DNA of 64,000 nucleotides from Acutalibacteraceae bacterium (GCA_045656545.1 JAZORF010000002.1:11072-75071), one strand, 5' to 3'. Shown: positions 29,505 through 45,786, numbered from the stretch's first letter. Notes: generated from the letters alone by a model not told the origin. Numbers and translations are program-made.

Positions 29505-31085
29505 TTATTCTGAACTCCCATCTTTTTGGTTTTTATAAAGAAATACTAATAAAATTGGCGTAAGCATAAAGGTGTAGAAAAAGAATCTGCAAGAATCACC
29601 TGAGCCTGTAAGCAGCAGTGTTGTACCGAAATTGTATAAGAAAACAGGCAACACAAAGAATATCTTTTTCCAATCTGTCCACTTGTTGAGTTTGCATTTT
29701 GCAAGCACCGAAACAAGCAGTATTAGGTGCATCATACCCACATACATAAACAGGTGAGGGAACAATTTGTTAAAATCGGCAGTCAGTTGCTTGTCGAACC
29801 GTTGCATCTCTGCCTTGCTTTCCGACACCTCGTTATATTGGCTTAAGCCACTGTATGGGGTGATATAAAGATAAAAATCGTCGCTGACGGTATAAACAAC
29901 CTCAGTCAGTTTTATAAGGCCAGTGATGGAGGCTTTGGGGCAATCTTTAAAGCACCTTGCCGCCATATTAAGCACCTTAGCGGCGCCGTATTCCTCAATA
30001 ACATAGTTGTTGGTGCGATAGTCCCACTTAACCTCGTTGTATGAGCCGTAGTAGTATGTGCTTTGCCACACCTCTTTGGGTGCAACTTTGTATGCAAATT
30101 CCAGAATGTCTTTATCCACATTTTCGGTGTCAAATGTAACTGCGGCACCGATAACTGTCATTGGCATACCTAAAGTTTCAATCTGCCGACTGTCAGGGCT
30201 TTCAACCTTTAGTATAGCATAAAATGGATATTTAACTGCCCCAACCAAAACAATACAAGCGGCGGCAATAACAAGTGCTCGCTTTCGCGAAATAAACAAA
30301 AGCACCGCAAAAACAAAAGGCACTGTGAAAAGCAGAGCGTTGTGTCTAAAAAGGGTGGTTGCTACTGCAGTAAGCACAAAGCATATGATGTTAAGGGGGC
30401 GTTTTAACCACTCGCCCTTGGTAAAATAGACCTTTAGCCCATAGGTTACCATCAGCATAGCGCCTATTGCAAAAGAAACATCTTTCCAAGGGAACAGAGC
30501 CATACTTGATGTTTCGGGGTTTACAAGAATAAACAACATTGCAATCAGTGCATAGCCTGTGCTTGTGTACCGCTTGATTGCACAAAGACTGTATCCAATT
30601 ACCGCAGAAAAGAGTAACATTTGGAACAAAACTATAGAGCCAATCCACCCCCGCGTTATAAAAAGAGGCAGTTTAAAGGCAAACAAGGTGTGGAAAACGG
30701 GATGCCAGTCGTTATATACCCCTTGCATACACTGTTCGTATTGGGTAAGTGAATCGGTTGAAAAACAACCTGGATAATACAAAAAATAATGGAACAAAAA
30801 GACTATGAGGGGCGCTGCAAAAAACAAAATGCGCCACACATTGTCGTGAATGGCAAACTTGCACTGTTTACCCTCTGAAAACTCGAATTTGCGTACCAAT
30901 TTCAATATGAATGGACAAACTAAAAGACAGATAACCAACCATATCAGTGCGCCAATCCAAAACGCGCCGCTATAAGTTGTGTGGATGTACACTTGAGTTA
31001 GTGTAATGAAAAGGGTATAAAGGATAAAAATTATTCCGTTTGTACCCTCAAAATGATTGAATATTTTTTTACAAACAGTTTTCAT
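29505..31085 (-). CDS. Large polytopic membrane protein, possible GT-C-type glycosyltransferase
   Basis: 526 aa, more than 10 hydrophobic segments and one large loop. 2-nt gap to the downstream FAD enzyme gene. The functional call is inference from architecture only. Confidence 0.45.
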
Positions 31086-38426: not shown

Positions 38427-38455
38427 TTGACAAGTCAAGGGCGTTGTATTATAAT
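38427..38455 (+). promoter_or_regulatory. Consensus sigma-A promoter of the tRNA operon
   Basis: TTGACA, 17-nt spacer, TATAAT, about 30 nt upstream of the first tRNA. Confidence 0.75.
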
Positions 38456-38485: not shown

Positions 38486-38562
38486 GGCGGTATAGCTCAG
38501 TTGGCTAGAGCATTCGGTTCATACCCGAAGTGTCGTTGGTTCAAATCCGACTACCGCTACCA
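38486..38562 (+). tRNA. tRNA-Met (CAU), elongator type
   Basis: GGCGGTATAGCTCAGTTGGCTAGAGCATTCGGTTCATACCCGAAG..GCTACCA. Close to the Bacillus elongator tRNA-Met. A lysidine-modified Ile2 identity cannot be excluded by eye. Confidence 0.8.
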
Positions 38563-38567
38563 TATAT

Positions 38568-38642
38568 GGCCCGTTGGTCAAGCGGTTAAGACACCGCCCT
38601 TTCACGGCGGTAACATGGGTTCGATTCCCGTACGGGTCACCA
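38568..38642 (+). tRNA. tRNA-Glu (UUC)
   Basis: GGCCCGTTGGTCAAGCGGTTAAGACACCGCCCTTTCACGGCGG..GGGTCACCA. Near-identical to Bacillus tRNA-Glu. Confidence 0.92.
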
Positions 38643-38692: not shown

Positions 38693-38770
38693 GGTGGGTA
38701 TGGCGCAGTTGGCTAGCGCGCCAGATTGTGGCTCTGGAGGCCGAGGGTTCGAGTCCCTTTACCCACCCCA
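38693..38770 (+). tRNA. tRNA-His (GUG) with encoded G-1 and CCA
   Basis: GGTGGGTATGGCGCAGTTGGCTAGCGCGCCAGATTGTGGCTCTGG..ACCCACCCCA. The anticodon loop is TTGTGGC. Confidence 0.9.
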
Positions 38771-38813
38771 TTTTAAAAAGAATGGCACGCATTACTGCGT
38801 GCCGTTATAATAT

Positions 38814-38989
38814 AGAGGTGTCGCCAAGCGGTAAGGCACGGGATTTTGATTCCCGCATCCGTAGGTTCGGCGTAGCAGTTGAGTTGCAAAGCAAATCAAC
38901 TGTGAAGTCTCGAGCAAGGCAAGTTTTTTCGGACACCGCTTAGAGCGGTCGAAAAAACGCCTGCGCAGAGTACCCTGCCACCTCTGCCA
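38814..38989 (+). pseudogene. tRNA-Gln (UUG) copy interrupted in the T-loop by a 104-nt structured insert
   Basis: 38814-38869 is identical to nt 1-56 of the intact copy at 39008, and 38974-38989 is identical to its last 16 nt. In between, 104 nt replace the three T-loop bases AAT. Confidence 0.6.
38870..38973 (+). other. Structured insert within the tRNA-Gln T-loop
   Basis: Closing helix GGCG (38869-38872) / CGCC (38958-38961). Hairpin CAGTTGA (38876-38882) / TCAACTG (38896-38902). Long hairpin TTTTTTCG-gac-ACCGC-ttaga-GCGGT-CGAAAAAA (38924-38957). Confidence 0.55.
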
Positions 38990-39007
38990 TTTGAATTTAA
39001 TAAATAT

Positions 39008-39082
39008 AGAGGTGTCGCCAAGCGGTAAGGCACGGGATTTTGATTCCCGCATCCGTAGGTTCGAATCCTGCCACCTCTGCCA
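39008..39082 (+). tRNA. tRNA-Gln (UUG), intact copy
   Basis: AGAGGTGTCGCCAAGCGGTAAGGCACGGGATTTTGATTCCCGCATCCGTAGGTTCGAATCCTGCCACCTCTGCCA. Cloverleaf folds by eye; anticodon TTG. Confidence 0.9.
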
Positions 39083-39083
39083 G

Positions 39084-39118
39084 AAAAAACTCCTTGAGAA
39101 ATTCTCAAGGAGTTTTTT
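39084..39118 (+). terminator. Intrinsic terminator of the tRNA operon
   Basis: A6-CTCCTTGAGAA-a-TTCTCAAGGAG-T6. Confidence 0.88.
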
Positions 39119-39120
39119 CA

Positions 39121-39290
39121 ATGATGTTTGCCTTACGGCAAATGATGTCGCTTGCGCTAATGATGACGGCTTTGTCTAATGATGTCGCTTCGCTAATGTT
39201 TTGTGGAAAATATCGCATCATTTTCGGCGTAGCCCAATACATCATATTTGCGAATCAAATGCATCATATCGCCGTAATGCGATGCATCAT
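39121..39290 (+). repeat. Periodic hexamer / mini-hairpin inverted-repeat element, copy R2 (candidate structured ncRNA)
   Basis: ATGATG at 39121, 39142, 39160, 39179, then CATCAT at 39216, 39240, 39262, 39285. Spacers form hairpins (39128-39141, 39246-39260, 39268-39283). Confidence 0.65.
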
Positions 39291-39347
39291 TTAAATATTT
39301 TTAGAATTGTTCATCTTTTCAAAAAATAAGATTAGTTACTCCTTCGC

Positions 39348-39390
39348 AACTAACAACCCTAACTGCTGAGTTAAGGTTGTTAGTTTTTTA
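39348..39390 (+). terminator. Strong orphan intrinsic terminator downstream of R2
   Basis: 17-bp stem AACTAACAACCCTAACT/AGTTAAGGTTGTTAGTT (one mismatch) with a GCTG loop, followed by T-rich TTTTTA. No ORF precedes it on the + strand. Confidence 0.8.
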
Positions 39391-44706: not shown

Positions 44707-45786
44707 TTATTCCTCAACATAATTCAACAACTTAAACTCATAAACGCCATTGCCGTGAGAGGTAAGGGTAAAGGTATAATCACCCTTATAATTCGAAATA
44801 TCCCACCAACAAGGCTCGCAGTCCTTTTCATCAAGCACAACCTTGCCACTTGCATTTTTGATTACAAGGTCATAGGATTGCTGAGAATCATAGAAGGTAG
44901 CAGGTCCCTTAGCATCAATGCACAAGCGGTTAACACTGCCGTCGGCAGTAAATGTACCCATAATTTTTTGCTCGCCCGTTACAACGCCAAAGGCGATAGG
45001 GGACTTAGCAACAATGAAACTGCTTGGTATGTTAGTATGTATGTTTGTGGGTTGCTCCTCCGATTTTTTTACAGTGCAACGGGCAACTCCATCAATACCG
45101 CTTGTGGTGATTGTATACTCACCTTTTGTTAAGAAAAACTTGCGGTAGTACCACTCAGTTTCGTGAATGGAAACCTTGTCTGCAATAATATTGCCTTTGC
45201 TATCCTCAATTTTAAAGGTGCAGTCGCTTTCAAAGGTGCAAAGTTCACCGCAGTTAATGTCATAAAGGCCGTCTTCTTTGGCGGTAAAGGTGAATTTTGT
45301 ATTTTTACCGCTAACTTTTGCGGCGGCAACGCCACCACCAACAGTTACAGTCTGTGCCTCGTCGGTATCGGGTGCAAATCCCCAGGAAACAAAAGCCTTT
45401 TTCATATCCTTAAACTTTTTGTCAAATGTAATTTTAGCGGTAACAGTGCCTTTTTCAAAGCGGATTTTATCGGTGTAACCCCCCGAAATATCATCAAACT
45501 TGTGCAAAACCTTGCCCTTATTGTCCAAAAATTCCAACCGTGCCTTGTTAAAACCGTCGGGCCAAACCTCATATTCCGTGTTATCGTATGCAAGCAGTTT
45601 GATATATCCCGCCTCAGAAAGCACAAAATCAATCTGCAACTTTCCGCCTGTCAGTTCAATGTCTTTTCCATCCACAACAGGCTCTTTTGCAAGGTCAATT
45701 GTGACGGCGGTTATGGGTTTGTTGCATCCGCAAAACAGGGTGAGGAAAAGAGCGACAACCAAAAGCACAGAGAAAAACCTTTTCAT
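44707..45786 (-). CDS. Lipoprotein of unknown function with three beta-rich modules
   Basis: 359 aa. Signal peptide plus lipobox 'LTLFCGC'. Recurring module ends 'EKGTVTAKITF', 'TKGEYTITTSG', 'YKGDYTFTLTSHG'. Confidence 0.7.
   Translation of the reverse strand: MKRFFSVLLVVALFLTLFCGCNKPITAVTIDLAKEPVVDGKDIELTGGKLQIDFVLSEAGYIKLLAYDNTEYEVWPDGFNKARLEFLDNKGKVLHKFDDISGGYTDKIRFEKGTVTAKITFDKKFKDMKKAFVSWGFAPDTDEAQTVTVGGGVAAAKVSGKNTKFTFTAKEDGLYDINCGELCTFESDCTFKIEDSKGNIIADKVSIHETEWYYRKFFLTKGEYTITTSGIDGVARCTVKKSEEQPTNIHTNIPSSFIVAKSPIAFGVVTGEQKIMGTFTADGSVNRLCIDAKGPATFYDSQQSYDLVIKNASGKVVLDEKDCEPCWWDISNYKGDYTFTLTSHGNGVYEFKLLNYVEE

Follow-up and report, generated by a model that had tools for sequence, protein, structure and literature searches.

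Why does a bacterial tRNA cluster carry, directly upstream of an intact tRNA-Gln gene, a second copy of that gene in which part of the T-loop has given way to 104 nucleotides of other sequence, and what is the sequence found there? The copy lies in the window, by which we mean the whole stretch of 64,000 nucleotides (64 kb) of Acutalibacteraceae DNA analysed here. The tRNA cluster is surrounded by housekeeping genes with a G+C content of 44%, and the Pfam assignments of neighbouring ORFs place valS, folC, spoIIAA, spoIIAB, and a sigF-like sigma factor upstream of it. The order within the cluster is Met-Glu-His-Gln. A consensus promoter (38427-38455) precedes the plus-strand genes for tRNA-Met (38486-38562), tRNA-Glu (38568-38642), and tRNA-His (38694-38770), all identified by ARAGORN and Rfam. 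These are followed on the same strand by the interrupted tRNA-Gln copy, an 18-nt spacer (TTTGAATTTAATAAATAT, 38990-39007), and the intact tRNA-Gln(UUG) at 39008-39082, which was called by ARAGORN, scored 62 bits with Rfam, and has an A1:U72 pair and the T-loop TTCGAAT. The intrinsic terminator of the cluster (39083-39119, plus strand) is kept in three close relatives (L039, L040, and L042).

Both tRNA-Gln copies of the window have A1:U72, and so have the closest relatives (L038-L042), while more distant ones display U1:A72 or G1:C72. T-loop position 57 is A in the closest relatives (TTCAAAT, and in L038 even GTCAAAT). The segment 38784-38811 contains a conserved hairpin, GGCACGCATTACTGCGTGCC, which also scores as a minus-strand terminator; it is followed by a TATAAT that ends 3 nt before the tRNA-Gln 5′ end, too close to be the promoter of this gene.

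Alignment of the two copies bore out the boundaries given in the original prediction. The 56-nt 5′ part of the interrupted copy (38814-38869, plus strand) and its 3′ part (38974-38989, plus strand, comprising the T-stem 3′ strand, acceptor 3′ strand, discriminator, and CCA) exactly match the intact gene, the latter corresponding to 39067-39082. Between them, 104 nt (38870-38973, plus strand) substitute for the AAT of T-loop positions 58-60, so that the upstream copy reads TTCG-X-CCTGC and the intact copy TTCG-AAT-CCTGC. We refer to these 104 nt as X, which was delimited by the alignment, by its homologues, and by a covariance model (R1) described below. The duplication produces a 61-nt perfect direct repeat (38809-38869 = 39003-39063), the left copy of which, on the plus strand, consists of 5 nt of upstream flank and tRNA-Gln positions 1-57. 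The flank upstream of the X-bearing copy is the one that precedes the single tRNA-Gln in relatives. Neither ARAGORN nor the Rfam tRNA model (RF00005) called the upstream copy as a tRNA, and the downstream copy alone was called; the upstream copy retained a partial Rfam match of 20.3 bits, confined to the D and anticodon arms.

Homologues of X were found via spurious minus-strand ORFs that read through it. The translations of three ENA metagenome ORFs (P0245, P0246, and P0247) cover both tRNA-Gln copies, a homologue of X, and a counterpart of the spacer, whose length we deduce to be 17 nt. The contigs of these ORFs are known from the translations alone, and the variants that they represent, types A and B, are reconstructions based on codon comparison and parsimony. 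A fourth ORF (P0303), detected through a representative-library search, led to the DNA of another metagenome contig, L046, in which X accompanies a different tRNA. Read in the tRNA orientation, L046 comprises a promoter, tRNA-Thr, an intact tRNA-Tyr, an intrinsic terminator, a stretch of about 60 nt in which a fragment of the tRNA-Tyr T-arm region recurs in inverted orientation, the X unit, a second terminator, and a flank that is 83% identical to the one following tRNA-Gln in the close relative L038. The X unit is a tRNA-Tyr remnant that lacks the tRNA 5′ half: it consists of the tRNA-Tyr T-stem 5′ strand plus GCCG, the X homologue, and the exact last 16 nt of tRNA-Tyr. Both of its T-stem strands are of the tRNA-Tyr type (GATGG/CCATC), and the tRNA segment repeated directly in L046 spans 16-18 nt. 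No sigma-70-like promoter was found before X in this contig.

The position of X is the same in both tRNA contexts: it starts after T-loop position 57 and ends at position 61, and AAT is absent from the Gln and Tyr units alike. X lies in the tRNA orientation in all contexts examined, and an intact copy of the same tRNA adjoins the X-bearing copy in every case. The family, as represented by two DNA-level copies (window and L046) and three ORF-derived sequences, ranges from about 104 to 113 nt and occurs in uncultured gut Clostridia. In the reconstructed types A and B, both tRNA copies appear to carry the same lineage-specific variable-loop substitution, which points to concerted evolution of the tandem tRNA-Gln copies. 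Such concerted evolution of tandem repeats is the better explanation of the perfect flank identity. The encoded CCA of the X-bearing copy would be CCG or CCT in these types. The weakest of our inferences, drawn from the N-termini of the ORFs, is that a second L046-like unit (X2) may lie downstream of the intact tRNA-Gln in the contigs of P0245 and P0247.

The insert had been predicted to be structured, and its fold agrees with this. X alone reached -42.6 kcal/mol (z = -4.9) and the whole 176 nt had a z-score of -5.3; none of 200 shuffles folded as well in either case. RNAalifold returned 38 pairs for the two DNA copies, 8 of them compensatory. We then aligned four sequences (window, L046, and the inferred types A and B) under a consensus structure written by hand, in which 97.2% of the cells were paired and 8 pairs had changed on both sides. 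Neither value was reached by any of 500 shuffles, and pairing fell to 40-46% in controls with slid partners.

According to the consensus fold, the T-stem, formed by the 5′ strand GTAGG (38861-38865, plus strand) and positions 38974-38978, closes a three-way junction of two arms. Hence, the fold does join the two tRNA halves, as first proposed, and the closing stem covaries with tRNA identity. The first arm is hairpin 1 (38875-38903, plus strand), whose base GCAGU/ACUGU is kept and whose interior differs in sequence and length between copies with its pairing maintained. It is followed by the linker or junction strand GAAGTCTCGAGCAAGGCAA (38904-38922, plus strand), which contributes the 5′ side of the long arm's lower helices and differs at only 2 positions between the window and L046. 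Hairpin 2 (38923-38958, plus strand) has a 9-bp lower stem, a GAC bulge, and an upper stem of 5-6 bp; the lower stem displays three compensatory pairs relative to L046, and the closing pair changes from T-A to C-G in the inferred type A. The conserved 3′ strand of X, GCC-TGC-GCAGAGTAC (38959-38973, plus strand), pairs back to 38907-38920 and contains the invariant CGCAGAGTAC. The long arm as a whole (38907-38973) is thus built from GUCUC/GAG-UAC, GC/GC, GGC/GCC, the 9-bp stem, the GAC bulge, and the 5-6-bp stem. Hardly any change is seen in the joining strands and internal loops (ACTGTGAAGTCTCGAG, CGCAGAGTACCC), whereas the intergenic flank of L046 and L038 is only 83% identical. The two hairpins originally placed at 38876-38902 and 38924-38957 are real and backed by these comparative data. 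The proposed pairing of the ends, GGCG (38869-38872) with CGCC (38958-38961), has to be abandoned: CGCC pairs instead with GGC at 38918-38920 and with G38923, and the terminal helix is not conserved, the L046 homologue having no GGCG at its 5′ end.

A cloverleaf combined with X had a free energy of -64.7 kcal/mol, against -72.0 for the minimum free energy structure. Wobble pairs gave conflicting indications of the strand. Columns 15-48 form a G.U pair on the plus strand in both DNA copies and G-C in type A, which favours the plus strand, whereas the loop-closing pair 85-89 is C.A on the plus strand in L046 and inferred type B and would be a wobble on the minus strand, which favours the latter. 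Such pairs do not settle the strand. The covariance model R1, built from the four-sequence alignment, scored 139.7 bits for the window copy and 118.8 bits for L046, and identified no further copy in the 349 kb of the window and the collected loci, dozens of tRNA genes included. Invariant joining strands together with covarying helices are typical of functional RNAs. The combination found here, of covarying helices, invariant junction strands, and variable hairpin loops, favours an RNA nature of X. At the level of the aligned sequences, the compensatory changes and invariant blocks show selection on X.

Searches for known families and for further copies gave little. No Rfam 15 family matched X at E ≤ 10 (38780-39350, and also L046). 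This included group I and group II introns (RF00028/RF00029), which exceed 200 nt and, for group I introns of tRNAs, sit in the anticodon loop, X being 104 nt long and in a T-loop position, and the self-cleaving ribozymes (hammerhead, twister, pistol, hatchet, and HDV-like) in both the window and L046; hammerhead and kink-turn motifs, judged by eye, do not fit X. The arrangement is indeed as unusual as the original prediction held it to be, and the Rfam searches leave no known bacterial intron type that fits. We found no precedent in the searchable literature for a structured element in a bacterial tRNA T-loop and, to our knowledge, no bacterial tRNA gene with a conserved structured element at this place has been described. 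An exact 24-mer pattern from X had no match in genome, metagenome, or viral contigs, three more X or spacer patterns and one two-block pattern had none in viral contigs, and blastn with the window insert and the L046 copy retrieved nothing from phage and plasmid collections. A looser two-block pattern matched once, in a GC-rich coding region (L047), which we attribute to chance. Derivation of X from nearby sequence was also considered and rejected: X has an 11-mer in common with 39223-39233, and the flanks of hairpin 2 resemble the terminator arms, but these similarities are marginal, being reached by 17-20 of 500 shuffles. The only match in metagenome contigs to a pattern of A1-type tRNA-Gln was an unrelated phage-like tRNA array (L037, JAEIGA010007790.1, a JGI metagenome). 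On the minus strand of that contig, at about 975-1130, one tRNA apparently has a second tRNA-like sequence in its anticodon loop, and the tRNA called by ARAGORN at 1012-1088 has an anticodon of 4 nt.

The closest relatives show what the locus looks like when X is missing. They were reached via the 90%-identity cluster of the sigF-like protein (members P0241 and P0242). Nucleotide identity to the window, measured over 5.1 kb, is 96.4% for L038 and 94.8% for L039 and L040; L042 reaches 96.6% over a shorter overlap. All four assemblies have Met-Glu-His and one intact tRNA-Gln behind the same upstream flank. Compared with these empty alleles, the window has exactly 194 nt extra, made up of X, the 16-nt 3′ piece, the 18-nt spacer, and the 56-nt 5′ piece. 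The first 13 nt of the spacer (38990-39007) are missing in the empty alleles and have no source in the local flanks, which rules out a simple tandem duplication. Going by their names, L040 and L042 are k141 contigs, in which a 61-nt repeat should not have collapsed. Each of 11 more distant relatives (about 79-87% identity around the cluster) has a single tRNA-Gln, and all 20 species whose genome contigs matched a tRNA-Gln 22-mer pattern have one intact gene. The contigs for P0002, P0122, and P0123, which are 91-95% identical to the window in nucleotide sequence, stop before or just past the tRNA cluster. Decaying flanks in relatives, named in the original prediction as the mark of a plain pseudogene, were not what was seen; the closest relatives have a clean empty site.

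Collectively, these comparisons indicate that X is a member of a small, previously undescribed family of conserved structured elements that replace T-loop positions 58-60 in spare tRNA copies. As to what such an element does, we put forward, at somewhat short of an even chance, that X is a structured RNA embedded in the T-loop, made with the tRNA cluster and scaffolded by the tRNA, of which X would be the functional domain. The possibility of a novel processed RNA or tRNA-like scaffold, raised in the original prediction, accordingly stays one of two leading readings. The X-bearing copy would be transcribed with the cluster, since it occupies the site of the relatives' only tRNA-Gln and no terminator precedes 39083. 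With the acceptor/T-stem helix intact, RNase P and 3′ trimming could release a chimeric RNA of about 176 nt, in which the tRNA body would act as a scaffold for processing and stability. Within X, the active portion would be the conserved core of the junction, whose most plausible role is to bind a protein or a ligand. Such an RNA would be unable to decode because the elbow of T-loop and D-loop is gone, and a non-decoding copy would explain why the intact copy is always retained. Recombination between the 61-nt (or 16-nt) direct repeats would remove the module and yield exactly the empty allele of the relatives, while homologous exchange through the flanking tRNA sequence could restore it. A single crossover in the 5′ or 3′ repeat block would account for both gene orders: in the window the X copy precedes the intact gene, whereas in L046 it follows.

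This proposal is reminiscent of tRNA-scaffolded and tRNA-like RNAs such as tmRNA, the bacterial Y-RNA-like YrlA, and engineered tRNA scaffolds with an inserted RNA. There, as in the X-bearing copy, an acceptor/T-stem helix frames a foreign structured domain, and tRNA enzymes would be expected to set the ends. The differences are that X replaces the T-loop rather than the anticodon arm, that there is no Rfam match to tmRNA or other families, and that the X-bearing tRNA body is an exact copy of a neighbouring functional gene. Several considerations weigh against a scaffolded RNA. Expression of the L046 unit would need read-through, given the terminator upstream of it and the missing promoter, and the same unit, without a tRNA 5′ half, shows that a full tRNA scaffold is not required. 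Hairpins that act in single-stranded DNA would be expected to covary just as much. Finally, the presence of X at two tRNAs with tRNA-specific flanks needs a transfer mechanism, and the scaffolded RNA supplies none. We also consider a more far-reaching and rather unlikely version, in which X represents a new class: a three-way-junction RNA domain in the T-loops of spare tRNA copies that would rely on the tRNA body to be expressed, processed, and stabilised, and would move between tRNA-Gln and tRNA-Tyr by an undescribed T-loop-specific route. Binding or catalysis would then take place at its invariant junction core and serve a function, cellular or selfish, that is tied to tRNA biology.

The main rival is a DNA cassette, mobile but non-autonomous, with tRNA T-loops as its target. 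A transposase or recombinase encoded elsewhere would recognise its hairpins in single-stranded DNA, as with IS200/IS605 ends or integron attC sites; the cassette would survive only in duplicated tRNA copies, and any RNA would be incidental. We judge this unlikely on balance, while retaining it as the other leading reading. What survives of the recent small mobile or structured element first suggested is the element itself: a single recent insertion does not agree with a family that is also found in a tRNA-Tyr context. A cassette would explain the presence or absence of X, with precise empty sites, among close relatives, and the same element in the T-arms of two tRNAs with the same boundaries (NNCG-X-T-stem 3′ strand) and AAT missing in both. 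The two diverged copies that seem to flank one tRNA-Gln in types A and B and the promoter-less unit between two terminators in L046 point the same way. In attC sites, structure rather than sequence is conserved, and X resembles them in this, as it resembles IS200/IS605 ends and TnpB omega RNAs in its size of roughly 100 nt and in a variable flank 3′ of a conserved end.

Other features fit a cassette poorly. X is present once in the 64-kb window, and the 349 kb of window and loci, with their dozens of tRNA genes, gave no copy beyond this one and that of L046. It has no terminal inverted repeats or target-site duplication: its ends, GCGTAG... and ...GAGTAC, are not inverted repeats, so the terminal repeats that were to mark a MITE are not found, and AAT gives way to X instead of being duplicated. 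The two hairpins are dissimilar, unlike ends of the IS200/IS605 type and of elements derived from them (PATE), and the flanks rejoin to a tRNA without AAT, which does not recreate the target. The attC core sites (RYYYAAC ... GTTRRRY) are absent from the ends of X, whose fold is a three-way junction, and it is the joining strands and not the stems that are most conserved. No cognate enzyme gene lies nearby; transposase, integrase, TnpB, IscB, and Cas genes were all absent from the scanned window ORFs and from the ORFs called on L046. Two window ORFs, at 29505-31085 (minus strand, 526 aa) and 44707-45786 (minus strand, 359 aa), had no Pfam match at E ≤ 1e-5.

Integration at tRNA genes offers a second and more improbable DNA-based account, in which the X units are decayed ends of integrative elements at tRNA att sites, X being the arm next to attR and the 16-nt fragment the displaced tRNA end, with the interiors deleted. 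Direct repeats of att type are present (61 nt and 16 nt in the window, 16-18 nt in L046), and the layout of L046, as of the inferred X2, is an intact tRNA, about 190 nt, and a direct repeat of the tRNA 3′ end. Like genomic islands and their remnants, the X locus thus combines a repeat of the tRNA 3′ end with strain-level presence and absence and, downstream, with a cassette that varies among close strains. Here as well, both gene orders could result from a single crossover in one or the other repeat block (5′ or 3′). In contrast to such islands, X has neither integrase nor cargo: the 133 nt (window) or about 190 nt (L046) between the repeats hold no ORF, and no integrase or other element gene is present. 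X also lies inside the T-arm, between two tRNA-specific T-stem strands, whereas an att core should be contiguous. Integrase arm sites are not known to undergo compensatory base-pair changes, and X displays such RNA-like covariation. The window unit, moreover, has the whole tRNA 5′ part upstream of X, opposite to the usual geometry in which the 3′ end is restored.

Very improbable, in our view, is a guide-RNA-like module, consisting of a scaffold and a 16-nt 3′ segment equal to the adjoining tRNA, comparable to a TnpB omega RNA or a homing crRNA, which would guide a nuclease or transposase encoded elsewhere to tRNA genes. It would account for the variable 16 nt 3′ of the invariant scaffold end GCAGAGTAC, which match the local tRNA (Gln or Tyr) and are preceded by CGAAT in the intact genes, and for the terminator after these 16 nt in L046. 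However, no TnpB, IscB, or Cas gene was present in the ORFs scanned in the window and L046, and known omega-RNA scaffolds are longer than X. The first 5 nt of the supposed guide are paired with the 5′ flank, which likewise comes from the tRNA. The joined flanks give a tRNA without AAT and not an intact gene, so the logic of transposon homing does not fit.

There is only a very slight chance that X is a T-loop intron, spliced out to yield a second functional tRNA-Gln. The flanks are identical to those of a functional gene, and folding places the exon ends side by side at the T-stem, much as archaeal tRNA introns of the bulge-helix-bulge (BHB) type at non-canonical positions, including the T-loop, and split or permuted tRNAs combine an insert in the T-arm with preserved flanks and juxtaposed halves. 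This analogy, already drawn in the original prediction, fails on several counts. Excision would join TTCG to CCTGC (Gln) or GCCG to CCATC (Tyr), both without positions 58-60, and cannot restore a 7-nt T-loop. The host is bacterial and the junctions have no BHB, since both sit at the end of the T-stem, with a single strand of 9-10 nt on the 5′ side and an abutting helix on the 3′ side; group I and group II signatures are equally absent. Unlike archaeal introns, X adjoins an intact copy of the same tRNA gene in every case and is conserved in sequence and structure across different tRNAs. The L046 unit, further, has no tRNA 5′ half, and the encoded CCA of the X-bearing copy seems to be lost in types A and B. 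Least credible of all is a plain tRNA pseudogene, made by a single insertion or rearrangement, or a MAG assembly artefact, for which one may cite that the 104-nt insert is unmatched in pattern scans of genome, metagenome, and viral contigs and in phage and plasmid collections, and that a 61-nt repeat can loop in a de Bruijn graph, but which is largely refuted by homologous modules in four independent ENA assemblies, by the compensatory changes and invariant blocks that show selection on X, and by a 16-nt right junction too short to be joined by an assembler, so that reads presumably span it.

As an RNA, X would give the engineered tRNA scaffold a natural equivalent and would be a candidate for a new class of non-coding RNA. 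As a DNA cassette, it would represent a new route by which a selfish element takes advantage of biology's most conserved hairpin without harm to tRNA function. Under either reading, X accounts for the odd gap that automated annotation sees in this tRNA cluster. Its hosts are abundant but uncultured gut Clostridia; the covariance model R1 is a concrete means of finding more copies, and the presence/absence polymorphism among near-identical strains makes X experimentally tractable.

Variation around the tRNA genes of this locus is also seen outside X. The roughly 180-270 nt that follow tRNA-Gln behave as a replaceable cassette comprising the terminator and the first half of a repeat array (window 39083-39262, L038 5155-5425, and L046 34-262). 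L038, which is 96% identical upstream, has a different version of this cassette, and it is the L038 version that recurs, with 83% identity, behind the X/tRNA-Tyr remnant of L046. L024 is a relative with about 90% identity overall and 99.6% as far as the end of tRNA-Glu, directly beyond which synteny is lost. The following 160 nt (within L024 2990-3150) contain three perfect hairpins (z = -7.2) and are flanked by one inverted and one direct fragment of the tRNA-Glu 3′ end. Despite the similar style, the covariance model ruled out this structured segment as a relative of X.

The repeat array itself (window 39121-39290) consists of ATGATG hexamers with a period of about 19-23 nt. Direct ATGATG occurs at 39121, 39142, 39160, and 39179, with a partial hexamer at about 39195, and is followed by four inverted CATCAT at 39217, 39240, 39262, and 39285. 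The array sits between the tRNA-Gln terminator and a second hairpin or terminator (39348-39385), downstream of which begins the 39502 operon (FAD/NAD-binding protein, GltD-like, Fe-ADH, and glnA). Relatives have other repeated motifs at the same site (GTGAAGTT, TTTTCACT, and TGATGATATA). From its layout, the ATGATG array looks like a candidate protein-binding array.
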